Shown: positions 13,935 to 60,466 of the stretch, one piece after another
How positions within the stretch are numbered: position 1 is the stretch's first letter
Layout of the letters: the number at the start of each line of letters is the position of its first letter
Assembly (NCBI GenBank): GCA_900541795.1
Contig: UQLC01000010.1
Coordinates: forward strand, 4,669-68,668
Source of the DNA: an uncultured Collinsella sp.
Lineage (GTDB): Bacteria > Actinomycetota > Coriobacteriia > Coriobacteriales > Coriobacteriaceae
Length of the DNA: 64,000 bases
Direction of reading: 5' to 3'
Position numbers and translations under genes: made by a program
Notes under the pieces: model-generated
Seen by the model: only the letters and a program-made list of their open reading frames with translations
Databases searched by the model: none
Told to the model about the DNA's origin: nothing

Positions 13935-14036
13935 GTCCCTGGGGTGGGGCCCACACATATCGTCCCGCGCGCAGTTTCGCAGCAAAGCGAGAATGTTTGA
14001 GCACGGGATGATATGTGTGGGCCCCACCCCAGGGAC
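13935..14036. repeat. long palindrome (33-bp arms) with a short family-B-like core, in the def-fmt spacer
   Basis: 13935-13967 and 14004-14036 are reverse complements apart from one G:T position. The 36-nt interior cgcgcagtttcgcagcaaagcgagaatgtttgagca shares ordered blocks CGCG.AGTT.CGCA / GCGAG / TGT..GAGCA with the cores at 20368 and 58094. Confidence 0.7.
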
Positions 14037-20341: not shown

Positions 20342-20462
20342 GTTCCGAGGGCTTTAGTATTTGGTCGATCGCGAGTTCCGCACGAGCCGGAGGCCACTTA
20401 ATGTGGCCTCCGTGCGAGCAGGACTGTCCGAGCAGGCGACCAAATACTAAAGCCCTCGGAAC
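20342..20462. repeat. family-B nested palindrome, copy 1 (26-bp unique arms plus conserved 69-nt core)
   Basis: The arms 20342-20367 and 20437-20462 are perfect reverse complements. The core 20368-20436 is nearly identical to 58094-58161. Confidence 0.8.
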
Positions 20463-27529: not shown

Positions 27530-27541
27530 GCCACCACCAAC

Positions 27542-35116: not shown

Positions 35117-35661
35117 CTTGTAGGTCCTTCGCCTTTCATCCACACGGGAATCCCGCATACCACTTCGACAGCGCAGTCGGCCAGCGCCGACACGCCCGCG
35201 TTCACGCGCGCGAGCGCGCGCCTCCATACCTCGGTCCCCTCATCGTAGCGCATCCCATCGGCGAACACGTCGACGGTGACAACCACCGTATACGCAGCGG
35301 CCTGAGCGAGCCGTTCGATGCCTCCGAGCACCTCGCGCGCCACAGCGTCGGGGTCGCGTGGGGACAAGCCGGCTTCCGCGAAAAGCTCGTTTGCAACCAG
35401 GTTGCCCACGTCCTCCAAAAGAAGCGTGCAGCCGCGCGGAAGCCCGGGCACTGCGGCGCCCACGTCACGCGTGCGCTCGAGGGTGGAAAACCCCTTGCCC
35501 TCGCGCAGCGCCCGATGGCGCGCGATGCGGCGGGCGCCCTCTTCCCCGAAGGGCTCCATCGTTGCCAGGTACACGCGAGGGCCGTCGTGCCCGAGGCACA
35601 AGGACTCGGCGTAGGCGCTCTTACCGCTCGCGGCGGCGCCGATAACGAACGTCACCGCCAT
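35113..35661 (-). CDS. cobU: adenosylcobinamide kinase / adenosylcobinamide-phosphate guanylyltransferase
   Basis: 182 aa, MAVTFVIGAAASGKS (intact P-loop), ...CGIPVWMKG. It overlaps the cobT 3' end by 10 nt. Confidence 0.9.
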   Translation of the reverse strand: MAVTFVIGAAASGKSAYAESLCLGHDGPRVYLATMEPFGEEGARRIARHRALREGKGFSTLERTRDVGAAVPGLPRGCTLLLEDVGNLVANELFAEAGLSPRDPDAVAREVLGGIERLAQAAAYTVVVTVDVFADGMRYDEGTEVWRRALARVNAGVSALADCAVEVVCGIPVWMKGEGPTR

Positions 35662-36800
35662 TTCCCGGCCTCGAAATGCTCGTAAGCAGCCATGCCAGTC
35701 GCCGTGAACGTCTTCCCATCCCGGTACACGCACAGCGCCGAATCCAGAAGGGGCAGATACGCCATGGCGCCCGCGCCCTCGCCCAAGTGCATGCCTGCGT
35801 CGAGGGGTGCCTTTATGCCGAGCTCGCGAAGGAGCTCCTGGCTTGCGGGTTCGCTTGATGCGTGGGTGCCCACGAGGTAGCCCAAGGCGTTGGGGCACAG
35901 GCGCGCCGCGCACAGAGCCGCCGTGCAGGATATGACCCCGTCGAGGAGTGCCGGCGCCTTCGAGGCCGCGGCCCCCAGGTAGAAGCCGCACATCGCCGCA
36001 ATGTCGAAGCCGCCCACCTTCGAGAGCACGTCGATCGGGTCGGCGGGATCGGGCGAGTTCGCGTCGATAGCGCGCTCGACCACGTCGCGCTTGCGCGCGA
36101 GCGAGGCGTCCGAGAGCCCCGCGCCGCGCCCGACGAGGCTCCGCGCGTCCGCCCGGATGAGCACTGCGGCCACCGCCGCCGAGGTGGTCGTGTTGCCGAT
36201 GCCCATCTCGCCCGCGGCGAGAAGGCGCACGCCGGCGCGGGCAAGCCCGCACGCGACGGCGATTCCGACCTCGATCGCGCGCACGGCCCCATCGCGAGAC
36301 ATAGCGGAGCCGTGCGCGATGTTGCCGCTCCCCCGCCGCACGTTCGCGCGCACCATGCGCGCGTCTTCTATGCCCCGGGCCATACCCACGTCGACGGGCA
36401 CGACCTCGGCACCCGCGAACGCCGCCATGCGGCAAGCGCTTGTGGCCCCCTCGCACATGTTGCGCGCGACGGCTCGCGTCACGTCTTGCCCGCTTTGCGA
36501 CACGCCTTCGGCAACGACCCCGTTGTCGGAGAAGAATACCGCGAGCGCACGGGGGAACTCGGCCACCTCGGCGCTCCCCTGAGCTGCGGCGATACACGCG
36601 ACGGCGTCTTCAAAGTCGCCCAATCCCCCCAAGGGGTGCGCGATGGAGTCCCACGCGGCGTACGCGGCGGCGCGGGCGCACTCGTCTGCGGGCGCGATCC
36701 GGGAGAGCGCGGCTTCGAGCACGGCGCCCGGCGCCGACGAGAACGCGCGCTCGACTTCCTCGCGGATGCAGGCAAGCGCGGTTTCGGTTGCCTCAGCCAT
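35652..36800 (-). CDS. cobT: nicotinate-nucleotide--dimethylbenzimidazole phosphoribosyltransferase
   Basis: 382 aa, AAGEMGIGNTTTSAAV, GGFDIAAMCG, HLGEGAGA. RBS gaggag lies upstream. Confidence 0.9.
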   Translation of the reverse strand: MAEATETALACIREEVERAFSSAPGAVLEAALSRIAPADECARAAAYAAWDSIAHPLGGLGDFEDAVACIAAAQGSAEVAEFPRALAVFFSDNGVVAEGVSQSGQDVTRAVARNMCEGATSACRMAAFAGAEVVPVDVGMARGIEDARMVRANVRRGSGNIAHGSAMSRDGAVRAIEVGIAVACGLARAGVRLLAAGEMGIGNTTTSAAVAAVLIRADARSLVGRGAGLSDASLARKRDVVERAIDANSPDPADPIDVLSKVGGFDIAAMCGFYLGAAASKAPALLDGVISCTAALCAARLCPNALGYLVGTHASSEPASQELLRELGIKAPLDAGMHLGEGAGAMAYLPLLDSALCVYRDGKTFTATGMAAYEHFEAGKWR

Positions 36801-38175
36801 GCCGTCTCCTCTCTGCGAACGACGCTGCGGCAGACGCGAACGCGCGCGCAACGTCGGGGTTCGCAGGATAGTACACATGCGGGAAGCCCGCAACCAGGGA
36901 CGGGGTAGTCGTCATGCACGGCCAGCCCTTGTCGCGCCGGGGCTTTTGCGCCCAAAAGTCGCCGCCCGGGCAGGTGGACTGCCAGTAGTGGAACTCGTGC
37001 GCGCGGATGCGTGTGCCGCGCGGCCCGTAGAGCCCGTCGCGTTGGGAAGTGAGCTCCACGTACCCGAAATGGGACAGCCTTCCCCCGTTCTCGCTTGCGC
37101 CCTCAAGGGCGCCCACAACAGGCCAGCGCCGCCCCTCGCTATCGGAGATTTCGCGCTGCAGGTACAGAAACCCACCGCATTCGGCAACCGTCGGCATGCC
37201 GGATTCCACCGCACGCCGCACCGCCTCGCGCATCGGCGCGTTCTCGGAGAGCTGCCGCACATGGAGCTCCGGGTAGCCGCCTCCCAGATAGAGGGCGCTT
37301 GCCCCCCGCGGCAACTCGCTATCACACAGGGGGCTGAAAAAGGCCAGCTCGCAACCCAGGTCCTCGAGCGCGCGCAGGTTCTCCTCGTAGTAGAACGAGA
37401 ACGCCTCGTCACGCGCGACGGCGACGATGGGCCGCGCTCCCGCGATCGGCTCCAACCGGTAAGGATCCTCGCGGATATCGGGTGCCGTCGCCGCTATTTC
37501 GAGCAAGCGGTCGACGTCGAAGCTCTTTTCCACCAGCTCGGCCATCTTGTCGATGCGCGCGGAGAGCTGCTCGACCTCGTCGGCGGTCACAAGCCCCAAA
37601 TGCCGGCTTTCGAGCGAGAACGCATCGTCGGCGGGGATATTCCCCAAAACCGCGACACCCGTGTGCTTCTCGATCGCAGGCTTCGCGTAGGCGCAGGCAG
37701 CGGCGCTCGTCTTGTTCAGCACGACGCCGCGCACGTTCGCACAAGGCAGGAACTCGGCGATGCCGCGGATTACGGCGGCGAGCGATAAAGACGCCCCGCG
37801 CCCGTTCACCACTAAAACGACCGGCGTTTCCGTGTCGCACGCAACCTGGTAGCTGCTCGCGTCGGCCACGCCGGGCGCCATGCCGTCGTAGAAGCCCATG
37901 GCCCCCTCGAGCACCGCGACATCCGCGCCCGCGGCGCCGCGTGCGAGCAGGGCGCGCAGCGTCGGGGCGTCGGTGAAGAAGCCGTCTAAGTTGCCCGAGC
38001 GCGCACCCACGACGCGGCGATGAAAGAGCGGGTCAATGTAGTCGGGGCCGCATTTGAAGGCCGCGCATGCGAGGCCGCGGCGCGCAAGCGCGCGCAGGAG
38101 CGCGCACGTAACGACCGTCTTGCCGCTCCCGCTCGAGGGCGCAGCGACCATGAAGCGAGGGATGGTCGTGCTCAC
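36793..38175 (-). CDS. cbiA: cobyrinate a,c-diamide synthase
   Basis: MVAAPSSGSGKTVVTCAL P-loop, and a C-terminal GATase domain (AECGGFLYL). GTG 38175 overlaps the cbiET stop (GTGA). Confidence 0.9.
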   Translation of the reverse strand: MSTTIPRFMVAAPSSGSGKTVVTCALLRALARRGLACAAFKCGPDYIDPLFHRRVVGARSGNLDGFFTDAPTLRALLARGAAGADVAVLEGAMGFYDGMAPGVADASSYQVACDTETPVVLVVNGRGASLSLAAVIRGIAEFLPCANVRGVVLNKTSAAACAYAKPAIEKHTGVAVLGNIPADDAFSLESRHLGLVTADEVEQLSARIDKMAELVEKSFDVDRLLEIAATAPDIREDPYRLEPIAGARPIVAVARDEAFSFYYEENLRALEDLGCELAFFSPLCDSELPRGASALYLGGGYPELHVRQLSENAPMREAVRRAVESGMPTVAECGGFLYLQREISDSEGRRWPVVGALEGASENGGRLSHFGYVELTSQRDGLYGPRGTRIRAHEFHYWQSTCPGGDFWAQKPRRDKGWPCMTTTPSLVAGFPHVYYPANPDVARAFASAAASFAERRRHG

Positions 38176-39521
38176 CGGGCGCCGCCTTCCCCACCTGCAC
38201 CACGCGCGCTGACGAGGAACACGGGGTTTTGCGCCTTCATAAGATGGTGCGAGCCTACAGCCTCGGCGCGGGCGGCCGACACCTGGCACGCCTCGAACCC
38301 CTTAAAGCGCGAACCCGAGAGGAGCGCGCACGCCTCGGAGAGCGTCTCAACGGTGACGCATGGCACGCACAGGCGAACCTGCGAGTTCTTCTCGAGCGCC
38401 GCCTCCACGATGGAGGGAAGCTCGCCCGCGCTCCCGCCGACGAACACGGCGTCGGGGACGGGCAGTTTCGTGAGCGCTTCGGGGGCGACACCGGGGACCG
38501 CATGCACGTTGCCGCACCCGAATGCATCCGCGTTCTCTCGGATGAGCCGCACGCCGGCCGCGTTGCGCTCGACCGCCCATACCGACCCCGTTCGCGCGAC
38601 GAGCGCCGCCTCGATCGACACGCTCCCCGTGCCGGCTCCGACGTCCCACACGGTGTCGGTCGCGGTAAGGCGCAGCTTCGCGAGCGCGACGGCGCGCACC
38701 TCCTGCTTGGTCATGGGAACGTCGCCGCGGATGAAGAGCTCGTCGGGAATGCCCGAGGAAGCGTACGGCCAGCGGGAGCTCGCGGCGCGTGATGCGCCCG
38801 CAGAGTCTGCCGCGAAAGAAGCCGCCGCGGGCGATGACGCGCCAGCCGGCGCCTCGGAGGCTGCGCTAGAGCCCGCAGGCGACCCGGCGCCGCCTGCGAA
38901 CTCGATAAGCATCACGTTCAAGTCGTCGAACGTCTGACCTGCGATTTCACTTGCGGTCGCGCAGGTGATGCGCTCGTCGGGGTACGACAGGCGCTCGGCC
39001 ACCGTCACGCGCGCGTCCCCGAAGCCCGCCTGCACAAGCTCGCCCGAAAGCCGCGAGGGGTCTTCCCCGCCCGACGTGGCGAGGAAGAGCTCGCCTGAGC
39101 GCTCGGCCTCGGCCACGATGTCGCACGCCACGCCGTGAGCGCTCGCAAAGCGCCAATCCTGCCATGGACGCGCGAGGCACGCGGCGAGATACGACGCTGA
39201 GCTTATGCCGGGAATGATACGCACGTCCACCTGCGCGTCGCCGGAGAGCGCCTCCACCAGGCGGCGCGCGCCGCTGAACAGCCCCACATCGCCCGTCATC
39301 AAGACCACGGCGCGCAGCCACGACGCCGCATCGGTGAGCGCGGCGACGATGTCCGCCGTCTTAACGAGCTCGCATCTCACCACGTCGGGCGGCACGTCGA
39401 TGCCGACGAGCGCGCGATGAGCGCCGATGACCACGTCGGCGATGTCGATCGCGTCAAGCGCCGCGCGCGAGAGCAAGTCGGGGTTTCCGGGCCCCGCCCC
39501 GATGATCGTTACCTTTCGCAT
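38172..39521 (-). CDS. cbiET: cobalt-precorrin-6B/7 methyltransferase-decarboxylase, CbiE-CbiT fusion
   Basis: The N-terminal tetrapyrrole methylase domain begins MRKVTIIGAGPGNPDLL. A Ser/Ala-rich linker follows. The C-terminal CbiT domain has VWDVGAGTGSVSIEAA. Confidence 0.9.
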   Translation of the reverse strand: MRKVTIIGAGPGNPDLLSRAALDAIDIADVVIGAHRALVGIDVPPDVVRCELVKTADIVAALTDAASWLRAVVLMTGDVGLFSGARRLVEALSGDAQVDVRIIPGISSASYLAACLARPWQDWRFASAHGVACDIVAEAERSGELFLATSGGEDPSRLSGELVQAGFGDARVTVAERLSYPDERITCATASEIAGQTFDDLNVMLIEFAGGAGSPAGSSAASEAPAGASSPAAASFAADSAGASRAASSRWPYASSGIPDELFIRGDVPMTKQEVRAVALAKLRLTATDTVWDVGAGTGSVSIEAALVARTGSVWAVERNAAGVRLIRENADAFGCGNVHAVPGVAPEALTKLPVPDAVFVGGSAGELPSIVEAALEKNSQVRLCVPCVTVETLSEACALLSGSRFKGFEACQVSAARAEAVGSHHLMKAQNPVFLVSARGAGGEGGAR

Positions 39522-40255
39522 GGAATCTCCCGATACCCGCGCGGCGTGACCATACGGCCGCCTACGCGCTTCGTGTCCGCGTTGCCGACGAACACGGTGG
39601 TGAACATGTCGGCGTCGATCTCCCCCAGCTCGGAGAGCCTGCACATGCCCGACTGCTGCCCCTCGCGCCCGATGTTGCGTACCCAACCGCAGAGCGTGTC
39701 GGGGGCCTTCCATTCGAGCATAATCTTCGCCGCGCGCGAGAGCCTGTCGGCGCGCTTTCTGCTGCGCGGGTTGTACAAACAGATGCAGAAGTCGGCGCTC
39801 GCCACGGCGGCGAGCCTGCGCTCGATGACCTTCCACGGCGTGAGAAGGTCGGAGAGCGACACGACCGCGAAGTCGTGGGCAAGTGGGGCGCCGAGCACCG
39901 CCGACCCGCTCTGGGCCGCGGTGGCCCCGGCGATAACTTCCACGTCTACATCGGGGTAGTCCTCCGCAAGCTCCAGCACGGGGCTCGCCATGCCGTACAC
40001 GCCCGCGTCACCGCTGCACACGAGCGCCACGGCTTCTCCGCTCTGCGCGCGTGAAAGCGCCAGGCGGCACCGTTCGACCTCGTGCATCATCGGCGTCGCG
40101 AGATGCGCCGCGTCGGGCACGGCGGCGAGCGCGAGCTCCACGTATTTCGTGTACCCCACAACGATGTCGGCGGCCTCGAGCGCGCGCCGGGCCGCAATCG
40201 TCATGCCGTCGGGGCCGCCCGGGCCGATCCCCACCACGAAGAGCTTTCCCATCAC
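39509..40255 (-). CDS. cbiH: cobalt-factor III / precorrin-3B C17-methyltransferase
   Basis: 248 aa, KLFVVGIGPGGPDGMT, SGDAGVYGMA, LYNPRS. Confidence 0.9.
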   Translation of the reverse strand: MMGKLFVVGIGPGGPDGMTIAARRALEAADIVVGYTKYVELALAAVPDAAHLATPMMHEVERCRLALSRAQSGEAVALVCSGDAGVYGMASPVLELAEDYPDVDVEVIAGATAAQSGSAVLGAPLAHDFAVVSLSDLLTPWKVIERRLAAVASADFCICLYNPRSRKRADRLSRAAKIMLEWKAPDTLCGWVRNIGREGQQSGMCRLSELGEIDADMFTTVFVGNADTKRVGGRMVTPRGYREIPCER

Positions 40256-41385
40256 CGCTCCTTAAACGAAAGTTCGATAGTTACCTTGGAAAACGCGACG
40301 GTCACGCCGCCGTGAGCGAGCTTCGGTAAGATAAGTTTGCCCCCGTCCGCGAGCGCCGCGCGCTCGCACACGTTGTCGACCCCCACAGTCGCGCGCACGA
40401 AATCAGATGGCGAAACGCTGCCTTCGACCTGCGACAACTCCTCTGCGGAATACGTCGCGAGCGGGATATTGCGCGCGCGGCAGAAGGCGAGCAAACCCTC
40501 CTCGTGCGCCTTCACGTCGATCGTCGCCGCCTCGCGCACGGCCGAAGGCGAGATGCCCGCCTGCCCGCACGCGAGAAGAAACGCTTCCCCGATCGCTTCG
40601 GCGCACGCACCGCGACGGCACCCTATGCCCGCAACGATGCAGGGCACAACAAGGCGAAGCGGCTCGGGCGCAGGCGCCTGCGCCCGCACGCCCGCCGGCT
40701 TCCCCGTCTCAGTGGTGGGAACGACCTCGCCCTTTGTCTCCGCCGCGCGAACGGTCGCACCTGCATTCGCGCCGGCGAACGGCGACACGACGATATCGGC
40801 CCGAGCGCGGTCGGACGCAATGTCAACCCCCTCAGGCGGCTGTCCCGAAATCGGCATGTCGGAATAGAGCGCCACGCGCCCGCCAGAAAGCAGCCGCGCC
40901 GACACTCGCTTGATGGCCTCGGGATTCGAAACGGCGAGCCCCGCACAGCGTGCCCACGTATCCACCGCCCACACGCCGCGGACGTCGGTCGCCGTGGTAA
41001 TGACGGGGATGGCCCCTGCCGCGCGTGCCACAGTTTGCGCAAGCTCGTTCGCACCGCCCAAATGCCCCGACAAAAGCGGGACGGCAAAGCGCCCCACCTC
41101 GTCGATCGCCACAACCGCGGGATCGTTTGCCTTCGAGGCGACATGCGGCGCGATCGCCCGCACGGCGATGCCCGCCGCGCCCACGAACAGAAGCGCGTCC
41201 GACGCTTCCCACGCGAGCGCCGTCCATGCGCGCAGGTCGGCCTTCCCCTCGCCGAACCCGCGCGAAACGGAAACGTCCCAGCCAGGGTCACCTTCACCTG
41301 ACTGCGCACAATCGGAAAGCGCGCGTGCGGTGCGCTCCGCCAACGCATACCCCCTCTCAGTGAACGCTATGCAGGAAACCCTCAT
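40252..41385 (-). CDS. cbiG: cobalt-precorrin-5A hydrolase
   Basis: 377 aa with CbiG N-terminal, middle and C-terminal segments: FVGAAGIAVRAIAPH, PLLSGHLGGANE, GIGCRRG, VDNVCERAAL. Confidence 0.85.
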   Translation of the reverse strand: MRVSCIAFTERGYALAERTARALSDCAQSGEGDPGWDVSVSRGFGEGKADLRAWTALAWEASDALLFVGAAGIAVRAIAPHVASKANDPAVVAIDEVGRFAVPLLSGHLGGANELAQTVARAAGAIPVITTATDVRGVWAVDTWARCAGLAVSNPEAIKRVSARLLSGGRVALYSDMPISGQPPEGVDIASDRARADIVVSPFAGANAGATVRAAETKGEVVPTTETGKPAGVRAQAPAPEPLRLVVPCIVAGIGCRRGACAEAIGEAFLLACGQAGISPSAVREAATIDVKAHEEGLLAFCRARNIPLATYSAEELSQVEGSVSPSDFVRATVGVDNVCERAALADGGKLILPKLAHGGVTVAFSKVTIELSFKER

Positions 41386-41619
41386 CTAGCGCACCACCAT
41401 CGTCGAGAAGTAGCTGCCCCGATCGGGCACATCGTCAAGCGAGCGGTACACGCGCTCGCCCGGAAGCCCACAGTCCTCTACAAGCTCGGCACCGTCGAAG
41501 GCGCCCTCCTCGCAAAGAAAGCGCTTCGTGTCCGCAAGCGAGCGGCGCGCCTTCATGACCACCTTCGTCCCCGGCCAGCCGATTGCGCGGCCCACCCCAT
41601 ACAGAACGCCTTTACTCAT
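41386..41619 (-). pseudogene. cbiL: remnant of the cobalt-factor II C20-methyltransferase gene (cbiL) with a large in-frame internal deletion
   Basis: 77 codons. MSKGVLYGVG... resembles a tetrapyrrole-methylase N-terminus. ...GLPGERVYRSLDDVPDRGSYFSTMVVR resembles the family's C-terminus. Only 227 nt separate cbiD from cbiG, so a full-length gene of about 230 aa cannot fit. Confidence 0.6.
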
Positions 41620-42796
41620 ACGTCGCCCCCAATTCCCCGATAACTGCATCGGCGCCCGACGTGCGGAAAATCTCGCGGCGCTCGGCGTCGAACACGACCG
41701 CGGCGATGTCGCATGCGCCCGCCGCGCGGCGGCGCAACCTGTCCTCGATTGCCGCAGCGAGCGAGGCGCGCGCAGCGTCCCCCACGCCGGCGGCCTCGAT
41801 TACCTCGAGCGCCGCCGTGGTCGTGACCGACGACATGATCTCGCGCACGGTCTTCGCGCCCGCGCCAGCCAAGGCCGCGTGAGCGGCCAGAATCTCCGCG
41901 CGGCAGTCGGCGGTACGCGAATGGGTGTCCATGATGCCGCCAGCGACCTTCACCAGCTTGCCGATGTGTCCCACAAGAAGGACATTGGTGAATCCCTCGC
42001 GAACGCAGCAATCAATCGCATCGCCCACAAAGTTGGAGATGAAGACCACCGGCGCACCGTTTAGGTGGAAATGCCCCGAGATGAACTGCCCGCCGTAGTT
42101 GCCGGGCGTGAGCACGACTCCGCGCCGCCCCATAGCCGCATGCTGCCGGATCTCGAGCTCGATGCTGTCGCGCAAGGCAGCGAGGCTGCGCGGCTCGACG
42201 ATGCCCGTCGTGCCCAGGATGGAGATGCCGCCCTCTATCCCCAGGTGCGGGTTGAAGGTCTTTTCGGCAAGGGCCACACCCTCGGGTACCGAAATCGTCA
42301 CAGCAATATTTCCAGAAAAGCCGTGCGCGGCGCACACCTCACGCACCGCCGAAGTAATCATCGCGCGCGGCGTCGCGTTGATGGCGGCCGCCCCCACCGG
42401 CTGCTCGAGCCCGGGCAACGTCACGCGCCCCACGCCCACGCCGCCATCGACAGAAACTTCCGATTCGTGCGCGGGCACGTCCTTGCTGCCCGCAGTACCC
42501 GTGCCCGACCCCGCATGTTCCACGCGCGCGTACACGAGCACGCCGTCGGTCACATCGGCATCGTCGCCTGCGTCCTTTCGCACGGCGCACTGGGCGCACC
42601 CCTCGCCGATGCATGCGTCGACCACGTTCGCCTCGACGGGCAGCCCGCCGGGGGTGACGATCGACACGCGGCCGACGGGCTTTCGTGACAAGAGCATCTC
42701 GCAGGCCGCCTTCGCCGCGAGCGCGGCACAGCTCCCCGTGGTGTAGCCACAGCGCAGGCGGGTCGTCCCGGTATATATGTAGTGCTCGAAGGCCAC
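41612..42796 (-). CDS. cbiD: cobalt-precorrin-5B (C1)-methyltransferase
   Basis: 394 aa from GTG 42796, LRCGYTTGSCAAL, GGVGVGRVT, GIEGGISILGTTGIVEP. Confidence 0.9.
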   Translation of the reverse strand: MAFEHYIYTGTTRLRCGYTTGSCAALAAKAACEMLLSRKPVGRVSIVTPGGLPVEANVVDACIGEGCAQCAVRKDAGDDADVTDGVLVYARVEHAGSGTGTAGSKDVPAHESEVSVDGGVGVGRVTLPGLEQPVGAAAINATPRAMITSAVREVCAAHGFSGNIAVTISVPEGVALAEKTFNPHLGIEGGISILGTTGIVEPRSLAALRDSIELEIRQHAAMGRRGVVLTPGNYGGQFISGHFHLNGAPVVFISNFVGDAIDCCVREGFTNVLLVGHIGKLVKVAGGIMDTHSRTADCRAEILAAHAALAGAGAKTVREIMSSVTTTAALEVIEAAGVGDAARASLAAAIEDRLRRRAAGACDIAAVVFDAERREIFRTSGADAVIGELGATYE

Positions 42797-42797
42797 G

Positions 42798-43589
42798 CTA
42801 GCTGCTCGCCTTCCGATACCCCGTGGCAAACGAAGGGTCGTAAAGCTTGCTACGCTCGTACGACTCCGCTTGCGCGCCGTCGTACGCAAGTCCGCCGCGA
42901 GCTCCGAGCACGCGGCCCACCACCACGAGCGCCGTGCGGTCGATGCCCTCTCGCGCGCCCGCATCGGCGAGCGTGCCCACTGTGCAGCGCACCACGCGCT
43001 CCTCAGGCCAGGTCGCCTTGTACACGAGCGCCGCCGGCTCATCGGAGCTGCGGCCCGCGGCCAAAAGCTCGGCGGAAAGCTCGGCGAGCATACCCGAGCT
43101 CAGGAAGATGACCATAGTCGAGCCGCTTTCCGCCATGGCGCGCATGCCCTCGCCCGCGGGCATGGGGGTGCGTCCGGAAAGCCGCGTGATTACGACCGAC
43201 TGGCTGATTCCCGGCAGCGTGTATTCCTGGCGAAGCGCCGCCGCGGCACCGCAAAAGCTCGACACGCCGGGCACCACCTCGTAGTCCACGCCGCGCGCGT
43301 CGAGCGCGTCCATCTGCTCCTGGATGGCGCCGTACAGGCACGGGTCGCCCGTGTGCAGGCGCACCACTTCCTCGCCCCGCGCATCTGCCGCGCACATCAC
43401 GTCGAGCACTTCCTCCAAGGTCATGTGCGCGCTGTCGTAGACGACGCAGGATTCCTTGCACTCGGCGAGCAGCTCGGGGTTCACAAGGCTCCCCGCCCAA
43501 ACGACCACGTCGGCCGCGCGCAGAAGGCGCGCCCCGCGCAGCGTGATAAGGTCGGCGGCGCCCGAGCCAGCGCCAACGATATGAATCAT
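42798..43589 (-). CDS. cbiF: cobalt-precorrin-4 C11-methyltransferase
   Basis: 263 aa from ATG 43589, MIHIVGAGSGAADLITLRG, LHTGDPCLYGA, VPGVSSF. This is the first gene of the minus-strand operon. Confidence 0.9.
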   Translation of the reverse strand: MIHIVGAGSGAADLITLRGARLLRAADVVVWAGSLVNPELLAECKESCVVYDSAHMTLEEVLDVMCAADARGEEVVRLHTGDPCLYGAIQEQMDALDARGVDYEVVPGVSSFCGAAAALRQEYTLPGISQSVVITRLSGRTPMPAGEGMRAMAESGSTMVIFLSSGMLAELSAELLAAGRSSDEPAALVYKATWPEERVVRCTVGTLADAGAREGIDRTALVVVGRVLGARGGLAYDGAQAESYERSKLYDPSFATGYRKASS

Positions 43590-43819
43590 CCGAGCCTTCC
43601 CTTCCCGTTTCTCATCGCAACCGTTGACGCCGCCATTCGCGCAGCGGACAAAACACGGCGCCTGCGGCGGCAATCGGCGCAAATACGCAGGCAGGAGGCG
43701 CAATGCCGCCCGCCCTGGCTTTGACACGTTCACAAGTGCCCACTATCATAGTAAAAGTTTCGGCAACGAGCATATGACAATCGGATAAAAGGAAATGACC
43801 GGCGCGGCGCCCGCACAGC

Positions 43820-43930
43820 CCGCGCTGGCTTGCGGAGGGAACCAGGTGGGAATCCTGGGCAAGGGACATTACTGTGTAGGACGCGCAGGCGAACCGCCTC
43901 GCGCCCCAAGCCAGACTGCTTCGCCTTTTC
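43820..43930 (+). promoter_or_regulatory. candidate cobalamin riboswitch upstream of the cbiK / corrinoid-uptake operon
   Basis: gAGGGAAccaGGTGggAATCCtggGCaagggacattACTGTgtagg ... ccAAGCCAGActGC. This matches the conserved AGGGAA / GGTG.(A)AATCC..GC / ACTGT / B12-box-like AGCCAG blocks in the right order. ctggcttg (43825-43832) can pair with caagccag (43907-43914). The B12 box is shorter than the consensus. Confidence 0.55.
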
Positions 43931-44047
43931 CTCACGGCATCGCCGTGGCGTTAGCTCCTTGTGAACCCCGAGGGGCGCGCTTTTCTTTCGCTTGTGCCGA
44001 CAAGCAACTGTCGCCGGGGGACCGGCAAACCGAGGAAAGGAAAAACC

Positions 44048-48274: not shown

Positions 48275-49591
48275 ATGGGGGAATTCGTGCCGCGGCCCAA
48301 AACGCTCGGAGGGGACATTCCATGCTTAGACAGTCCTGAGCTCGCACGAAAGCGTCAGAAGACACTTTCGGCTCGTGCGGAACTGCGCGCGGAACGCCTC
48401 CTTCGAGCGGAGTCGAACCTCGAAACCCCGGTCGAAACGCAGGCTGACGGAGCGCCGCTTTTCCGCATAAGCGACCTGTCGGCGGGCTACGACAAGAAGG
48501 TCGTAGTCGAAGGCGTCGATCTGGAGGTTCGCGCGGGCGACGTCGTGGCGCTCATCGGGCCGAACGGCTCGGGCAAGTCGACCATCTTGAAAACCATCAC
48601 ACGCCATCTGGCACCGCTTGCCGGCGCGGTCGAGCTCGACGGGCGGGAGATTTCCCGATGGAAGACGGCGGAGTTCGCAAGGAACCTTGCCGTTATGCTG
48701 ACAGATCGCCCCCGGACCGAGCTCCTCACCTGCCGCGATATCGTAGAGGCGGGAAGGCATCCCTACACCGGGCGAATGGGCACACTCTCGCCCGACGACC
48801 ATAGTCGGGTCGACGAGGCCATGAAAACCGCACATGTGGAAGAGCTCGCCGAGCGCGACTTCATGCAGATAAGCGACGGGCAACGCCAGCGCGTCATGCT
48901 CGCACGCGCCATCGCGCAGGATCCGCGCGTGCTCGTGCTCGACGAGCCCACGTCGTATCTCGATATCCGCTACCAGATCGACCTGCTGCGAATACTTCGC
49001 CACCTTGCGAAATCGCGAAATGTGGCTATCATCATGTCCATCCACGAACTCGAGCTCGCGCAGAAAAGCGCCGACAAGGTGATTTGCGTGAAGGACGGCC
49101 GGGTCTTCCGCGCCGGCGCACCCGAGGACATATTCACGCGCGAGACGATTGGCGAGCTCTACGGCCTTAAACATGGCACCTTCAACGAGCGCTTCGGCAG
49201 CGTGGAAATTGGGCGCCCACACGGCGATGCGCACACGTTCGTCATCGCCGGCGCAGGTACGGGGTCAGCTGTGTTTCGCCAGCTCATCCGGCAGGGCAAA
49301 GCGTTCTACGCGGGCGTTCTGCACGAAGGAGACATCGACTGCGAGCTCGCGCGCGACCTGGCGGCGGAATGCGTGGCCGAGCGCGCCTTCGAGACGATCG
49401 GAGATAAAACCATAGCCCGCGCCATAGAGCTCCTCATCCACTGCGCGCGCCTTATCGTGTGCCCCGCTGCCTTCGGCACCTTAAACGCCCGCAACGCAGA
49501 GCTCGTCGAGTTCGCACACTCGCATGGTATCGAGGTCATGCAAGCGTGCGAAGGCGCATCGGAGGATTCCCATTTGGAGTGGGAAGAATAA
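48275..49591 (+). CDS. ABC ATP-binding protein (FepC/BtuD type) with a 65-aa N-terminal extension and an extra C-terminal domain of about 140 aa
   Basis: Walker A GPNGSGKST, signature ISDGQRQRVMLARA, Walker B VLVLDEPTSYLD. The sequence then continues ...TFVIAGAGTGSAVFRQLIRQGKAFYAGVLHEGDIDCELA..., which is not part of a canonical NBD. The ATG directly follows the permease stop. Confidence 0.85.
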   Translation: MGEFVPRPKTLGGDIPCLDSPELARKRQKTLSARAELRAERLLRAESNLETPVETQADGAPLFRISDLSAGYDKKVVVEGVDLEVRAGDVVALIGPNGSGKSTILKTITRHLAPLAGAVELDGREISRWKTAEFARNLAVMLTDRPRTELLTCRDIVEAGRHPYTGRMGTLSPDDHSRVDEAMKTAHVEELAERDFMQISDGQRQRVMLARAIAQDPRVLVLDEPTSYLDIRYQIDLLRILRHLAKSRNVAIIMSIHELELAQKSADKVICVKDGRVFRAGAPEDIFTRETIGELYGLKHGTFNERFGSVEIGRPHGDAHTFVIAGAGTGSAVFRQLIRQGKAFYAGVLHEGDIDCELARDLAAECVAERAFETIGDKTIARAIELLIHCARLIVCPAAFGTLNARNAELVEFAHSHGIEVMQACEGASEDSHLEWEE

Positions 49592-51890: not shown

Positions 51891-51967
51891 TGGTAGCCCG
51901 TACCAGATTCGAACTGGTGATCTCCGCCTTGAGAGGGCGGCGTCCTAAACCGCTAGACGAACGGGCC
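51891..51967 (-). tRNA. tRNA-Glu (anticodon CUC), CCA end encoded
   Basis: The minus-strand sequence GGCCCGTTCGTCTAGCGGTTTAGGACGCCGCCCTCTCAAGGCGGAGATCACCAGTTCGAATCTGGTACGGGCTACCA folds as a cloverleaf. The anticodon loop is CTCTCAA and the T-loop is GTTCGAATC. Confidence 0.9.
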
Positions 51968-57517: not shown

Positions 57518-57650
57518 TCCCATTCCTCTCTCCGTGTCATGTGATAAAGCGTTTTGCCATATCCATGACAAAAGAGCGCAGCTACCTTACAACAGGTCAC
57601 TGCGCCCCCAAATATGAACTTAGTTGTTCAACATGCGACCCGTTTGAGTT

Positions 57651-57914
57651 CTACTCGCCAAGACCGCTCTTGATGAGCTCGATGGCAGCAGCCAGAGCCT
57701 CGGCCTCGTCAGCGCCGTCGCACTTGACCTCGACCTCGGTACCGCAGGGGATACCAGCAGCCATGAGGGCCATCGGGGACTTGCCGTTGACCTCCTTCTC
57801 GGGGGTGACGACAGTCACGTCACAGGCGTACTTGCCCATGGTGGAGGCGAACAGACCAGCCGGACGCATGTGCAGACCCTGAGGATTAACGAGGGTAGCC
57901 TTCTCAGAAACCAT
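57651..57914 (-). CDS. ptsH: phosphocarrier protein HPr
   Basis: 87 aa, ATLVNPQGLHMRPAG (His15 context) and VNGKSPMALM (Ser46 context). RBS aaaggag lies upstream. Confidence 0.9.
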   Translation of the reverse strand: MVSEKATLVNPQGLHMRPAGLFASTMGKYACDVTVVTPEKEVNGKSPMALMAAGIPCGTEVEVKCDGADEAEALAAAIELIKSGLGE

Positions 57915-58054
57915 AATTGACTCCTTTTTGTGTTTAACCCCTGTCATGCATGTGGCAGGAGTCAGATTCACGACGTTGTTTATATTAACTCACATCAAAC
58001 GGTTTTTCATTATGTTTCGGACGAATTGTTGGACAGATGTGTTTGTCGTCCGCC

Positions 58055-58200
58055 TGCTCGCCCACAGGGGCCCGTGCGCGGCCTGTGAGATTTATCGCGA
58101 GTTCCGCACGAGCCGAAGAGCACTTAATGTGCTCTTCGTGCGAGCAGGACTGTAGAGCAGGAAATCTCACAGGCCGCGCACGGGCCCCTGTGGGCGAGCA
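58055..58200. repeat. family-B nested palindrome, copy 2 (39-bp unique arms plus conserved 68-nt core)
   Basis: tgctcgcccacaggggcccgtgcgcggcctgtgagattt (58055-58093) is the perfect reverse complement of 58162-58200. The core at 58094-58161 matches 20368-20436 except for compensatory hairpin changes and a small difference near the 3' end (tgtagagcagg vs tgtccgagcagg). Confidence 0.8.
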
Positions 58201-58307
58201 AGCTGCGGAAACTCGGTCGGTCCAGAGCAATATCGTGCAAACGGAAATCTGGCTGATGATCTGTTCGCGACAAAGACTCGATAGGTAGCCCCCTCTATGC
58301 CCTTTTG

Positions 58308-58378
58308 TAAGTTGCGGTGAAATAGGGACTGCATTTGGGGTTGAATCGTTTAAACAGTCCCTATTTCACCGCAACTTA
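58308..58378. repeat. family-A palindromic repeat, copy 3 (perfect 24-bp arms)
   Basis: taagttgcggtgaaatagggactg (58308-58331) and cagtccctatttcaccgcaactta (58355-58378). Confidence 0.8.
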
Positions 58379-58390
58379 TGGGAGGGATAG

Positions 58391-58424
58391 AAAAAAGGCG
58401 GAGGCCCTGGGGAGGGACTCCGCC
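58391..58424 (-). terminator. intrinsic terminator of fruA
   Basis: On the minus strand, ggcggag / 14-nt loop / ctccgcc is followed by ttttttc, 40 nt after the fruA stop. Confidence 0.75.
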
Positions 58425-58462
58425 TTATATACAGGGGGCGATGTTATTCGCGGGCTGGGGGA

Positions 58463-60466
58463 TTAGACCAGGCGGGCGTTGATCGTCTTGGCGATCTCGG
58501 CGGCGTTGGTGGAACCCTTGACGGTGGCACGGAAGTCCTCGTCCATGAGCGCCTCGGCGACCTTGGACAGAATCTTGAGATGCGTGGTGCCAGCCTGGGC
58601 ACCGGGGATGAGCAGGGCGATAGCCACGTTGACGGGAGCGCCGTCCATGGTGTCCCAACCGGTGACGCCGGAGTCGTCCTTGACGACGATAACGGCGGCC
58701 TCGGTAATGGCATCGGACTTGGCATGCGGAATGGCGAAGCCCTCCATCATGCCCGTGGTACCCTCGGCCTCGCGGGCCAGGAAGGCGTTCATCACGGCGT
58801 CGGCGTCGCTGGCGATACCGGCCTTGACAGCCTGGTTGGAAACGAAGCTCAGAGCCTCGTCACGAGAAGCGAAGTCCTCGGCGACAAAGACGTTCTCGAC
58901 CTTCACGAAGTCAGCAGCCTCGGCCTTGGGGGCCTCGACGGCAGCGGCCTTGGGGGCCTCAACCGGCTTGGTTGCAGGAGCGGGCTTCTGGTTCTTCTCG
59001 AAGTCGTACTTCTTGAAAGCCACGAACAGGATGCCACCGACCACGGCGCCGATGAGGATCGCGAGGACCCACAGCGGACCGTTCTCGACAACGGGCAGGA
59101 CCAGGAAGCCGCCGTGAGGCGCCGGATCGTGAACGTTGAAGAAGATGGTCAAGATGGAAGCGATGGAAGAACCGAGCATCATGATGGGCATAACGGGCCA
59201 GATGTTCTTGGTCATGAACGGAATGGCGCCCTCGGTGATGTGGGTGCAACCAAGGATGAGGTTGACGATACCGGCGTCATGATCCTCCTGGCTGAAGTAC
59301 TTCTTGCCGACAACGACGGCGAAGGTGGTGATCAGCGGCGGAACGATGCAAGCGGCGGAGACGGCAGCCATGAAGTTGGTGCCGAAGTTGTAGGTCTCGG
59401 TGCCGACGCCAGCTTCGAGAGCGGTACCGAGCAGGAAGGTGCCAGTAGCGTAAGCAGCCTTGTTGACCGGGCCGCCCATATCAAAGGCGCACATGCAGCC
59501 GATGGCCAGGCCAAGGATCACCGGACCGGAGTTACCGAGGCTCTGCAGGAAATCCATCATGCCCTGGTTAATGGCAGCCATGGGGCCGGAAATACCAAGC
59601 ATGACCAGACCGACGATGGCGGTAGAGCACAGCGGATACAGGAAGATTGCCTTCAGGCCATTAAGGCTCGCAGGAATTTTAGAGAAAACCTTCTCGAGCA
59701 GCAGGATGACATAGCCAGCGAGGAAGCCGCCGACGATGCCGCCTAGGAAGCCAAAGCCCACACCTGCGCCACCGGCGTCGATCATGCCGGTATCGGCGTT
59801 AACAGGCAAGCCCTGGATGGCAATCATACCGGCGACGAAACCGGGGACGAGCGCCGGGCGCTTGCCGATGGACTCGGCGATGTAAGCGGAGAGCACCGGA
59901 ACCATGAGGTTCATGGCGATACCGCCGATAATCTTGAGCATCGCGGCAAAGCTGTTGTAGTCGGCAGCCGTCGAATCAAAGGACGTGATGCCCCACAGGA
60001 ACGAAATGGCGGTCAGAACACCACCGGCAACGACGAAGACCAGCATGTGGCTGACGCCGTTCATGAGGTGCTTGTAGATGACGTGACCGATGGACTCCTT
60101 CTCCTCGACCTCGTCCTCGACATCGGCGGCAGCGGCAACCGTGTCGTCGCCCTTGGCGGCGAGCGCGCGGTCAATCAGCTTACCAGCAGCCTCGACGGAC
60201 AGGGCCTTGGAAACACCAACGGAAACCATGGGCTTGCCGGCGAAACGCTCAGCCTGGACATCCTTGTCGGCTGCGACGACGACGGCCTTGGCACCAGCGA
60301 TCTCACTCTTGGTGAGCTCGTTCTCGACACCGACCTGGCCATGAGTCTCGACCTTAATGGTCAGACCGCGCTCGGCAGCTGCCTTCTCCAGCGCCTCCTT
60401 AGCCATGAAGGTGTGCGCAATGCCGGTCGGGCAACCGGTCGCGGCGATGATGTCAAACTTAGCCAT
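58463..60466 (-). CDS. fruA: PTS fructose-family transporter, IIB-IIC-IIA fusion
   Basis: 667 aa. The N-terminal IIB domain is AATGCPTGIAHTFMA (Cys site). A polytopic IIC domain follows. The C-terminal IIA domain has GFAIPHAKS (His site). Confidence 0.9.
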   Translation of the reverse strand: MAKFDIIAATGCPTGIAHTFMAKEALEKAAAERGLTIKVETHGQVGVENELTKSEIAGAKAVVVAADKDVQAERFAGKPMVSVGVSKALSVEAAGKLIDRALAAKGDDTVAAAADVEDEVEEKESIGHVIYKHLMNGVSHMLVFVVAGGVLTAISFLWGITSFDSTAADYNSFAAMLKIIGGIAMNLMVPVLSAYIAESIGKRPALVPGFVAGMIAIQGLPVNADTGMIDAGGAGVGFGFLGGIVGGFLAGYVILLLEKVFSKIPASLNGLKAIFLYPLCSTAIVGLVMLGISGPMAAINQGMMDFLQSLGNSGPVILGLAIGCMCAFDMGGPVNKAAYATGTFLLGTALEAGVGTETYNFGTNFMAAVSAACIVPPLITTFAVVVGKKYFSQEDHDAGIVNLILGCTHITEGAIPFMTKNIWPVMPIMMLGSSIASILTIFFNVHDPAPHGGFLVLPVVENGPLWVLAILIGAVVGGILFVAFKKYDFEKNQKPAPATKPVEAPKAAAVEAPKAEAADFVKVENVFVAEDFASRDEALSFVSNQAVKAGIASDADAVMNAFLAREAEGTTGMMEGFAIPHAKSDAITEAAVIVVKDDSGVTGWDTMDGAPVNVAIALLIPGAQAGTTHLKILSKVAEALMDEDFRATVKGSTNAAEIAKTINARLV

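Follow-up and report, generated by a model that had tools for sequence, protein, structure and literature searches.

The long hairpin upstream of ptsH in a 64,000-nt stretch of an uncultured Collinsella genome (contig UQLC01000010.1; the window in the following) is a member of a dispersed family of nested-palindrome DNA repeats. We read it, with a probability of roughly 0.6, as an interspersed, non-autonomous repeat comparable to REP sequences, MITEs and Rickettsia palindromic elements (RPEs), which is maintained and reshaped by processes acting at the DNA level. The family has apparently not been described previously, and the searchable literature on repeats, MITEs and invertons in Collinsella and the Coriobacteriia held nothing relevant. 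A preliminary description of the window had already preferred a DNA-level or mobile origin over a dedicated cis-regulatory RNA, and this preference is borne out by a multi-copy family that is dispersed over unrelated contexts in both orientations and exhibits no wobble bias.

A repeat search of the window delimits the ptsH hairpin (copy 2; Table 1) by two arms of 42 nt that are 98% complementary and enclose 68 nt. The perfect inverted repeat of 39 bp reported previously (58055-58093 and 58162-58200) was confirmed as a part of these arms, and a 37-nt piece of the arm occurs at only two places in the window, with none expected in shuffled sequences. The core consists of a 5' junction (ATCGCGAGTTCCGCACGAGC), an inner stem of 10 bp (58114-58123 and 58129-58138) closed by the loop TTAAT (58124-58128), and a 3' junction (TGCGAGCAGGACTGTAGAGCAGG). 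Both strands of the 146-nt block fold with nearly equal energies, as RNA (-120.4 kcal/mol for the plus strand and -120.7 kcal/mol for the minus strand; z = -15 and -17) as well as DNA (-74.4 and -75.0 kcal/mol).

Copy 2 is one of four family members in the window. As described earlier, it shares its core with copy 1 in the same plus-strand orientation, with 90% identity over 60 nt (58094-58161 against 20368-20427); their inner 10-bp stems differ at three positions on each side, all of them compensated. Copy 1, whose perfect 26-bp inverted repeat comprises 20342-20367 and 20437-20462, is located between the metK terminator (20212-20245) and the ribosome binding site of an L-serine dehydratase gene (ATG at 20486), and points in the direction of this gene. 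Copy D, with a 2-nt insertion in its core and a different apical loop (TTCT), begins 28 nt past the stop codon of a FecCD permease gene and lies antisense within a 5' extension of the ABC ATPase ORF 48275-49591; it is kept in eight other Collinsella loci and in an Eggerthellaceae MAG with the same context. The fourth member is found between def (14044-14586, minus strand) and fmt, 7 nt beyond the def stop codon. It retains the junctions CGCGCGCAGTTTCGCA ... AGAATGTTTGAGCA and has its apical hairpin deleted to leave a centre of 24 nt, while the core is intact in its orthologs L042 and L080.

Table 1. Family members in the window and features of the ptsH locus. Bit scores refer to the covariance model R1.
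Feature	Position	Strand	Remarks
Fourth member	13935..14036	+	39-nt arms, 92% complementary; 25.5 bits
Copy 1	20342..20462	+	26-bp perfect arms, 69-nt core; 112.1 bits
Copy D	48303..48409	-	imperfect 19-bp outer stem; 61.9 bits
ptsH (HPr)	57651..57914	-	gene downstream of copy 2; ATG at 57914; translation is HPr
Putative ptsH promoter	58009..58036	-	-35 TGTCCA (58036..58031), 16-nt spacer, -10 CATAAT (58014..58009); by eye
Left arm, copy 2	58052..58093	+	42 nt; 39 nt from 58055 perfectly paired
Core, copy 2	58094..58161	+	68 nt; 107.5 bits
Right arm, copy 2	58162..58203	+	repeat search
Intrinsic terminator of the upstream PTS EIIBCA gene	58395..58426	-	stem and T-run; separate from copy 2

An exact-pattern scan of one genome per species yielded at least 120 loci. 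Among the matches listed, nearly all belong to Collinsella, with the addition of an Eggerthellaceae MAG and Rubneribacter, and the Eggerthellaceae cores are diverged relative to those of Collinsella. From these listed matches we extracted 91 distinct elements of 105-152 bp, which fall into at least 16 orthologous groups defined by their flanks and into at least 17 genomic regions; a 0.9-Mb replicon of C. aerofaciens has 13 matching places. A match in Casimicrobiaceae (L068) was dismissed as a chance occurrence of the pattern.

The elements are built in three layers. At their heart is an asymmetric junction of conserved sequence, 5'-TCGCGAGTTCCG... / ...CAGGACTGT(A|CC)GAGCAG-3', which is invariant from Collinsella through the Eggerthellaceae. 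Above it stands a covarying apical hairpin, and below it extend fast-evolving, almost perfectly complementary arms of 20-42 bp, of which those of the ptsH copy are the longest (39-42 bp). The core occurs in the variants alpha, beta and gamma, each with a 5-bp helix of its own (GCACG/CGTGC, CGCAA/TTGCG and CACGA/TCGTG). Conservation of the arms is greatest near the core and falls off with distance: their proximal parts are alike across loci (...TAAGGTTG, ...AAGGTTTTCG, ...TAAGTTTG), the distal parts are locus-specific and the distal ends differ at every locus. The statement that the arms are unrelated is correct for copies 1 and 2, but family-wide the arms are homologous, fast-diverging and compensated. 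This diverged common theme also speaks against the idea that the arms are target-derived inverted duplications or foreign ‘spacers’ of the CRISPR type.

The copies are found in many unrelated gene contexts and in both orientations relative to transcription, namely sense in 5' regions, antisense just past stop codons and antisense within ORFs; the operon gaps that harbor them include those of def-fmt and permease-ATPase. On the 3' side of the core, the nearest gene is a median of 30 nt away, compared to 230 nt on the 5' side, and in 18 of 34 representatives the 3' side lies 7-37 nt from a start or stop codon. Thirteen representatives are no more than 45 nt away from the stop codon of a convergent gene. 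Head-to-head pairs exist at three or more loci; at L001, for instance, two such elements separate a divergent gene pair, each of them in sense orientation to its own gene and some 37 nt ahead of the start codon. In three contexts (the ABC ATPase of the window, L015 and the ABC-F protein of L070), an ORF remains open through the core, with a predicted peptide of the form ...SAR(T/K)...SARAEL.... In copy D it is the nucleotide sequence that is conserved; the reading frame overlapping it is not the same in Collinsella as in Eggerthellaceae.

Although the arms differ between loci, and even between species at one locus, they are 96-97% Watson-Crick paired; the elements among the matches listed have 2388 Watson-Crick arm pairs and 90 others. 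In a set of 40 diverse copies, 97.2% of the cells are paired, compared to 76.8% upon shuffling and 35-44% when the partners are slid, and 20 of 29 pairs exhibit compensated double changes. Among the arm mispairs of the listed elements, G·T (25) and A·C (26) are equally common, which fits maintenance at the DNA level better than selection on one RNA strand. A wobble bias was also sought after splitting the elements by their likely transcribed strand, and none was found. As G·U is not preferred over A·C overall or by transcription context, selection on one RNA strand is unsupported.

Individual loci preserve a range of rearranged alleles. L009 and L099 have identical arms and swapped, fully compensated inner stems, while at the otherwise orthologous sites L076, L092 and L073 a single arm has been replaced, either entirely or as a patch. 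The two arm classes of the L009 locus have only their distal 7 nt in common. Likewise, two very different element alleles exist within one species at ptsH, where form 1 and form 2 coexist in strains with flanks that are 96.6-98.5% identical and where the two forms agree in no more than the distal 11 nt of their arms. In 15 of the 17 sequences of this locus, the core points in the direction of ptsH. The flipped state is found in the window, as compared with L007, L019, L044, L053, L113, L118, L123 and L128-L130, and within form 2 in the complete genome CP024160.1 (L124); no flip was seen in about 100 sequences from other loci. Judged by this comparison, the ptsH copy of the window is a rare within-species inversion of the centre. 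An assembly artefact is an unlikely cause of the flips, although one may conceivably underlie that of the window: final k-mers usually exceed the 39-42 bp of the arms, and one of the flips is in a complete genome. The core is thus antisense to ptsH in the window, as the preliminary description had it, but not as a property of the locus. Because the window carries a rare inversion, the argument drawn from a sense core in one leader and an antisense core in another rests on a strain-specific state.

In five metagenome contigs (L131-L135), the core at ptsH has been deleted, with three to four independent and partly asymmetric breakpoints. L131 and L134 are clearly asymmetric deletions, whereas L132, L133 and L135 are 19-bp mini-palindromes formed of exactly the distal arm ends; for L132 and L133, a deletion between 6-nt direct repeats present in both arms accounts exactly for the allele. 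The search for empty sites at ptsH thus gave short alleles that we prefer to read as deletions, although L132, L133 and L135 could be either deletions or empty sites.

The element ends 140 nt upstream of the ptsH start codon (arm end at 58055, ATG at 57914), in agreement with the earlier estimate. A putative promoter begins 16 nt downstream, in the direction of ptsH, of the 42-nt arm. The 140-nt region that contains it is nearly invariant in 11 strains and intact in the core-deleted alleles. A stricter promoter scan of 57600-58700 returned no promoter-like site; neither IHF-site nor promoter motifs were recognized in the core by eye, and the promoter scan likewise gave none there. Given the position of the putative promoter, the ptsH promoter likely lies downstream of copy 2, which would place the element just upstream of the promoter and not in the leader. 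The preliminary description had named two findings that would count against it. One of them, that transcription starts downstream of 58055, probably describes the actual situation; the other, a strain-specific duplication of the whole block including its arms, is not, as the block is orthologous across Collinsella. We also do not uphold the expectation that the hairpin is likely to matter for ptsH-ptsI, since the element is located upstream of the conserved 140 nt, the core-deleted alleles keep this region and one species harbors two very different element alleles. As far as the natural alleles tell, copy 2 is dispensable at ptsH, and a role as a dedicated regulator of the sugar-uptake genes is very improbable. 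If it affects ptsH-ptsI at all, it would do so incidentally, either as a stable hairpin in transcripts reading through it or as DNA prone to cruciform formation next to the -35 region. For the PTS genes the result is therefore a negative one, with no evidence for the hairpin as a dedicated regulator.

Several known classes of elements could be rejected. In gathering mode, the sole Rfam match in the window is a tRNA (51894-51967), and in E-value mode copies 1 and 2 gave only weak chance matches to miRNA-type hairpins, which rules out a known RNA family. An intrinsic terminator is incompatible with the lack of a T-run on either side and with the copies inside operons and ORFs, and an integron attC site with a centre that is conserved instead of variable, the lack of an R-box and the dispersal of copies among housekeeping genes. 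A phage- or plasmid-borne element was dismissed as the pattern has no match in IMG/VR or in GenBank phages, and the only ‘plasmid’ match is the 0.9-Mb Collinsella replicon. A classical cut-and-paste MITE would be expected to have target-site duplications and conserved termini, neither of which is present: in 38 representatives, the longest direct match between the 12-nt flanks is 0-5 nt, and none is consistent. Target-site duplications are known to fade with age (PMC10969869). No transposase, recombinase or invertase, nor a RAYT gene, recurs near the elements among the loci listed (at least 120), and the only protein families that recur across the 17 regions are ABC transporter and EF-G paralogs. 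The analysis turned up neither a clean empty site nor an autonomous parent, nor recent identical copies at different loci, so that the mobility of the family is putative.

The closest comparisons are with other interspersed palindromes. Like the REP, BIME and REPIN sequences of proteobacteria, the Collinsella elements are short, extragenic, multi-copy palindromes. Both occur after stop codons and between operon genes, often as inverted pairs, and both are non-autonomous, lack target-site duplications and should fold into stable stem-loops in mRNA; BIMEs are also similarly modular, with a central motif between palindromic units. In REPs, however, the palindromic units are conserved and the centre varies, whereas the Collinsella elements combine a conserved centre with hypervariable arms. 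Moreover, REPs measure 20-40 nt, have a conserved, GTAG-like 5' tetranucleotide and are linked to RAYT, a Y1 HUH transposase, while the elements described here are 105-152 bp long, have no conserved terminal tetranucleotide and have no such gene near the loci listed. Prokaryotic MITEs such as ERIC, Correia, QMITE and Chunjie (PMC10969869) share with them a size below 500 bp, a non-coding, multi-copy and mostly intergenic nature, very stable predicted stem-loop transcripts, copies that are truncated or have internal deletions, and now and then a copy within a gene. In contrast to the Collinsella elements, whose termini differ at every locus and whose arms are GC-rich, MITEs have conserved terminal inverted repeats, target-site duplications and an IS parent, and are usually AT-rich (PMC10969869). 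RPEs, by their description, are alike in size (~100-150 bp) and can reside in-frame within protein-coding genes without disrupting the ORF, as the Collinsella elements may do in the three contexts above. They encode a conserved peptide, though, while in Collinsella the nucleotides are conserved, the frame differs between lineages and most copies are intergenic; the hosts, too, are Alphaproteobacteria in one case and Actinomycetota in the other.

For the changes observed within elements, the best parallels are quasi-palindrome template switching and the flip-flop inversions of chloroplast DNA, where small hairpin-loop inversions bounded by inverted repeats of 11-24 bp are established (PMC12928735). 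There, too, close relatives differ in the orientation of a short asymmetric centre, perfect arms are maintained and deletions end inside the arms. These phenomena are, however, a generic mutational behaviour of hairpins and not an element family, and they explain change but not the conservation of the junction. We infer that such a mechanism operates in Collinsella. Within-element correction, either by intrastrand hairpin templating or by gene conversion from arm to arm, would keep the arms perfect. Gene conversion between paralogs, in our view, keeps the cores alike and gives rise to mosaic alleles, as the sequence patterns show. Recombination or template switching between the arms occasionally inverts the centre, as seen in the window, and replication slippage deletes it, as seen in the short alleles. 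Elsewhere, copies at transcript ends or inside operons could act as mRNA-end hairpins in the manner of REPs.

Some observations do not sit easily with a DNA-level repeat. The invariance of the junction as far as the Eggerthellaceae, maintained in copy D despite the differing frame, looks like purifying selection for recognition by a factor and not like drift with conversion alone; the core orientation is conserved at all loci but ptsH; and a purely neutral repeat predicts neither the asymmetric placement nor the head-to-head pairs. Furthermore, strong selection for pairing would reach the same end state as correction within the hairpin. It is conceivable, if unlikely, that the family is a structured, cis-acting RNA module. 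A protein or a nuclease such as RNase III would then be offered the conserved junction, an internal loop that may include tandem G·A pairs (CACGAGC / UGCGAGC), on a long stem, and the module would thereby control mRNA stability or processing at transcript ends, in 5' UTRs before ribosome binding sites and in 3' UTRs after stop codons. This would account for the strong covariation in arms and inner stem around invariant junction nucleotides, the retention of a different 5-bp helix in each core variant, the conserved orientation at orthologous loci, the proximity of the core's 3' side to start and stop codons in 18 of 34 representatives, the sense-oriented pair of L001, and a core that is conserved as far as the Eggerthellaceae. 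Yet the transcribed strand varies, as the copies are antisense after stop codons and inside operons but sense before start codons, with loop sequences that differ by strand, and G·U is not favored over A·C in any context class. RNA structures under selection seldom have perfect stems as long as 39-42 bp, the element is upstream of the promoter at ptsH and at the L009 locus, natural strains have deleted it, and no Rfam family matches.

The outward decay of arm conservation, in turn, could reflect a mobile unit composed of the core and the proximal 10-22 bp of the arms, which inserted into the loops of pre-existing, locus-specific GC-rich hairpins, such as terminator-like stems just past stop codons, so that the distal arms are target-derived. 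The distal 11 nt and 7 nt that alone unite the ptsH alleles and the L009 arm classes, the mini-palindromes made of exactly the distal ends and the many copies located 7-20 nt past stop codons, where hairpins are expected, are in line with such insertions. We nevertheless hold them to be distinctly improbable: two alleles at the same locus (L131 and L134) are clearly asymmetric deletions, direct repeats in the arms account exactly for two of the mini-palindromes (L132 and L133), no locus with a pristine hairpin in relatives was found, distal arms of 15-30 bp exceed typical terminator stems, and no T-runs follow the arms. More improbable still is that the ptsH copy is a programmed inverton, in which a recombinase flips the 68-bp centre to alter the expression of ptsH-ptsI or a neighbour. 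It resembles the invertons of gut bacteria, which are segments flanked by inverted repeats beside a promoter region and occur in both orientations among gut isolates, in that strains of a single species, among them one with a complete genome, carry either orientation, both flips are at ptsH (2/17, compared to 0/~100 elsewhere) and the element abuts the putative -35 region. Its invertible part, however, comprises only 68 bp without a promoter-like site, and no invertase or recombinase recurs near the elements among the loci listed. With inverted repeats that vary from locus to locus, no recombinase site common to them can be recognized; outside ptsH the orientation is fixed at every locus, flips are rare in consensus assemblies and the element is dispensable, as the core-deleted alleles indicate. 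That the longest arms are those at ptsH by itself favors a homology-driven inversion.

A bolder and rather unlikely idea is that the family represents a functional class of its own, in which the invariant asymmetric junction (TCGCGAGTTCCG / CAGGACTGTNGAGCAG), displayed on a long, self-correcting hairpin, is recognized by a conserved factor of the Coriobacteriia. This factor could be a structure-specific DNA enzyme of the HUH or recombinase type with extruded hairpins as its substrate; a nuclease or a protein that binds RNA would be further candidates. If so, the junction would be read in a single orientation to determine the behaviour of gene boundaries, which would explain the fixed orientation, the adjacency of the 3' side to starts, stops and -35 boxes, the head-to-head pairs and the conservation across families, including within ORFs; the flip at ptsH would then be a genuine on/off change of function.

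Collinsella is a common and heavily studied genus of the human gut, and the family occupies dozens of its housekeeping gene boundaries (ptsH, sdaA, def-fmt and ABC transporters). It inverts the usual logic of bacterial repeats, in that a conserved centre is flanked by hypervariable, yet perfectly paired arms. As the intermediates expected for palindrome evolution, that is, the replacement of one arm, the swapping of parts between paralogs, the inversion of the centre and independent deletions, are caught in natural populations, the family offers a natural system for how long bacterial palindromes stay perfect. On the practical side, flips of the centre may be mistaken for regulated invertons, and the 68-nt core can produce chimeric joins in MAGs, with L057 being a probable chimeric MAG contig. 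The extension of the ATPase ORF through copy D, finally, bears on gene annotation.

The arms of copy 2, the element beside ptsH, span 58052-58093 and 58162-58203 in a repeat search (42 nt, 98% complementary, 68 nt between them) and pair perfectly over 58055-58093 and 58162-58200, which bears out the inverted repeat of the preliminary description. Their sequence is unique in the window, where chance would predict no match. The enclosed core (58094-58161) matches 20368-20427 in copy 1 at 90%, both on the plus strand, as had been described; copy 1 has its own perfect 26-bp arms, unlike those of copy 2 in sequence, and the two cores show three differences per side of the 10-bp inner stem, all compensated. 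When both strands of the 146-nt block are folded, a check proposed earlier, they prove equally stable, with -120.4 and -120.7 kcal/mol as single-stranded RNA (z about -15 to -17) and -74.4 and -75.0 kcal/mol as single-stranded DNA. The ptsH start codon (57914, minus strand) lies 140 nt from the arm, in agreement with the original estimate.

No Rfam family matches copy 1 or copy 2. A gapped exact pattern built from two conserved core blocks and scanned against one genome per species returned at least 120 loci, nearly all of them Collinsella among the matches listed; diverged cores outside this genus, again among the matches listed, occur in an Eggerthellaceae MAG (locus L015) and in Rubneribacter (L070). 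Viral contigs gave no match to this pattern, and phage records none to the core. The matches listed yielded 91 distinct full elements, and by flank similarity their loci form 16 orthologous groups in 17 genomic regions. Trained on 40 diverse copies, a covariance model detects four members in the window as well as additional diverged copies in the fetched loci; in L042 and L080, the orthologs of the fourth member, the core is intact. Since all window copies have orthologs in other Collinsella species, the expansion is old. The core has 13 blastn places on NZ_OY725717.1, a 0.9-Mb Collinsella aerofaciens replicon catalogued among plasmids in PLSDB, which amounts to roughly one copy or more per 70 kb. 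Two database entries deserve mention: a ptsH-locus ortholog with a perfect 42-bp-arm element (L044, CAVHBE010000073.1) sits in a Methanobrevibacter smithii MAG bin, almost certainly through a binning error, and in MAG contig CALFGH010000263.1 (L057) the left half of the copy-1 locus continues, within the 68-nt core, into the right half of the L010 locus, which is more likely a chimeric assembly at the repeat than real recombination between paralogs.

Elements of the family in the window and signals around the ptsH element
Feature	Position	Strand	Genomic context	Remarks
Fourth member	13935-14036	+	def→fmt	25.5 bits; apical hairpin deleted
Copy 1	20342-20462	+	metK→sdaA	112.1 bits
Copy D	48303-48409	-	FecCD permease→ABC ATPase	61.9 bits
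Copy 2	58052-58203	+	PTS EIIBCA→ptsH	107.5 bits
Putative ptsH -10	58014..58009	-		CATAAT; by eye
Putative ptsH -35	58036..58031	-		TGTCCA; 16 nt upstream of -10; by eye
EIIBCA terminator	58395-58426			own terminator of the gene upstream of the ptsH element

All elements are long hairpins built in three layers. Arm length is 20-42 bp, and the arms vary in sequence by locus and even, within a single orthologous locus, by species (the L009 locus, for example, has three arm classes); in the 91 elements among the matches listed, their pairing is nevertheless almost perfect, with 2388 Watson-Crick pairs versus 90 others. Their core-proximal segments are semi-conserved (…TAAGGTTG, …AAGGTTTTCG, …TAAGTTTG, …GAGATTT), so that the arms of different loci are homologous but heavily diverged; that the arms are unrelated, as previously stated, is true of copies 1 and 2 set side by side, but not of the family as a whole. 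The asymmetric junction 5'-(A)TCGCGAGTTCCG… / …CAGGACTGT(A/CC)GAGCAG(G)-3' is essentially invariant, and the apical hairpin above it covaries. Three core variants each have their own 5-bp helix adjoining the apical stem: GCACG/CGTGC (alpha), CGCAA/TTGCG (beta) and CACGA/TCGTG (gamma). Pairing covers 97.2% of cells in the alignment of 40 sequences, compared with 76.8% in column shuffles and 35-44% with partners slid by 1-3 columns, and compensated double changes occur in 20 of 29 pairs. At L009, L012, L017 and related loci (e.g. L009:2800-3300), the whole element is enclosed by a second outer stem that also covaries (CAACGG... / ...CCGTTG), followed by a perfectly conserved TTGACC-17-CATAAT promoter, an invariant leader of ~80 nt and a 173-aa gene; no Rfam family matched this region.

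At the ptsH locus, HPr-identical contigs and pattern hits provided 17 other sequences, all with an element at the same place. The core, reported as antisense to ptsH, is so in the window, but is co-directional with the gene in 15 of these 17. The window's centre is flipped relative to every other sequence with the same allele (form 1), including its closest relatives, L007 and L130, with flanks 97.2-97.5% identical; likewise, the complete genome CP024160.1 (L124) is flipped within the second allele, form 2. Among the matches listed, the window copy is the only flip in 16 flank-defined groups (~110 elements), and L124, present only in the HPr set, adds a second; both are at ptsH. In the antisense state, the centre has thus been inverted between the arms that flank it, a rare change within the species; the same behavior is documented for chloroplast hairpin loops flanked by inverted repeats of 11-24 bp (PMC12928735). 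Form 2 has 31-bp arms and a beta-type core; its flanks are 96.6-98.5% identical to the window's up to the element edge, its arms share only the distal 11 nt with form 1, and its inner part resembles the L010-locus paralog, which points to conversion between paralogs. Furthermore, a metagenome scan for short alleles, with the two ptsH-locus flanks at most 61 nt apart, revealed five contigs without the core (L131-L135). The preliminary description had suggested looking for a palindrome without its core in relatives: in L132/L135 and L133 the distal arm ends survive as a 19-bp mini-palindrome, which in each case exactly fits a deletion between 6-nt direct repeats within the arms, whereas the remnants are asymmetric in L131 (left arm reduced to 8 nt, right arm to 27 nt) and L134 (only ~18 nt of the right arm). 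The core thus appears to have been lost at least three times independently.

At some otherwise orthologous sites, a single arm has been replaced (in L076 the left arm as a whole, in L092 the right arm and in L073 a patch of 8 nt). These replacements, a swapped and fully compensated inner stem between identical arms (L009 vs L099), the mosaic ptsH alleles, the centre flips and the centre deletions, whose breakpoints lie within the arms, look like evolutionary intermediates. We read them as a sequence of two steps. A patch in one arm is converted from a paralog, as the sequence patterns show; the element would then correct itself to perfect complementarity, through synthesis templated by the hairpin or conversion from one arm to the other, and the same outcome would be reached under strong selection for pairing. 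The elements lack the hallmarks of an active transposon: they have no target-site duplications, the metagenome scan of the ptsH locus gave no clean empty site and, among the matches listed, there are no conserved termini across the 91 elements, no recurrent transposase or recombinase near elements in the 17 genomic regions and no identical copies at different loci.

G·T and A·C mispairs are equally common in the arms (25 and 26 in the 91 elements among the matches listed), a split by likely transcribed strand revealed no mispair bias, both strands fold equally well and the contexts are heterogeneous, all of which argues against selection on one RNA strand and supports the repeat origin at the DNA level toward which the preliminary description leaned. 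Thirteen representatives lie 7-45 nt past the stop codon of a convergent gene, whose mRNA would carry the antisense core, six precede a co-directional start codon by 20-63 nt, and others are found upstream of promoters or inside ORFs. We also rejected an intrinsic terminator, since no U-tract follows the arms and two of the four window copies lie within operons, which argues against strong termination.

Copy D and its Eggerthellaceae counterpart (L015) both lie between a permease stop codon and an ATPase domain, in an ORF that crosses the element without a stop; downstream of the element, neither ORF has a canonical start codon. In the window, the ABC domain of this ORF (48275-49591, plus strand) begins at residue 79, and because no canonical start lies between element and domain, the ORF appears to be translated through the antisense copy D. 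In Rubneribacter (L070), the core is in frame within an ABC-F protein, and the predicted peptide of all three ORF copies reads …SAR(T/K)…SARAEL…. Because of a 2-nt indel, Collinsella and Eggerthellaceae differ in reading frame over half of the element, yet the nucleotides are still conserved; the constraint is therefore on the nucleotide sequence and not on the peptide. In sitting within ORFs that are left open, these copies resemble Rickettsia palindromic elements.

A role for copy 2 in ptsH-ptsI expression, earlier thought likely, is not supported. Putative -10 and -35 boxes were recognized between element and ATG, although a stricter promoter scan returned no site at 58009-58036; signals of the σ70 type in Collinsella are supported by the perfect TTGACC-17-CATAAT directly downstream of the L009-locus element. 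Transcription of ptsH thus most probably begins near 58002, on the downstream side of the element. Moreover, the 140 nt between element and ATG are nearly invariant in 11 strains and unchanged in all five core-lacking contigs.

The family is best filed with the bacterial interspersed palindromic repeats (REP, MITE, RPE), as one with a conserved centre. It lacks both the conserved termini and the target-site duplications that define MITEs, and the conserved palindromic unit that defines REPs; its unusual trait is that hypervariable yet perfectly paired arms enclose a conserved centre. We consider it improbable that a factor recognizes the junction in one orientation, but retain the idea because the junction is invariant across bacterial families (Collinsella, Eggerthellaceae), the core orientation varies at no locus other than ptsH among the matches listed, and the core's 3' side adjoins genes (median 30 nt to the gene boundary, compared with never less than 73 nt and a median of 230 nt on the 5' side). 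Head-to-head pairs with facing core 5' sides and 60-140 nt between arms (L003, L008, L049, L056, L100, L086; L001; L030/L095) point the same way; in the L001 pair, which separates two divergent genes, a start codon follows each element after ~37 nt.

Another, unrelated family of palindromic repeats (TAAGTTGCGGTGAAATAGGGACTG ... CAGTCCCTATTTCACCGCAACTTA) occurs at 11323-11396, 27534-27620 and 58305-58378, the last with perfect 24-nt arms (58308-58331 / 58355-58378) and ~100 nt from copy 2; it is absent from the ptsH locus in L122 and L124, and, unlike in the family of copy 2, its arms are the conserved part. A palindrome at 18697-18788, with a 26-nt centre between 33-nt arms that are 97% complementary, precedes metK (18894-20174) by ~100 nt; it belongs to neither family and has no Rfam match. 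The G+C content is 0.67-0.69 over 28000-44000 and ~0.60-0.62 in the remaining window, and coding repeats of period 15 nt, in which Lys/Ala/Thr codons (AAGAAG/GCC/ACC) abound, are found at 6738-7228 and 24-82.
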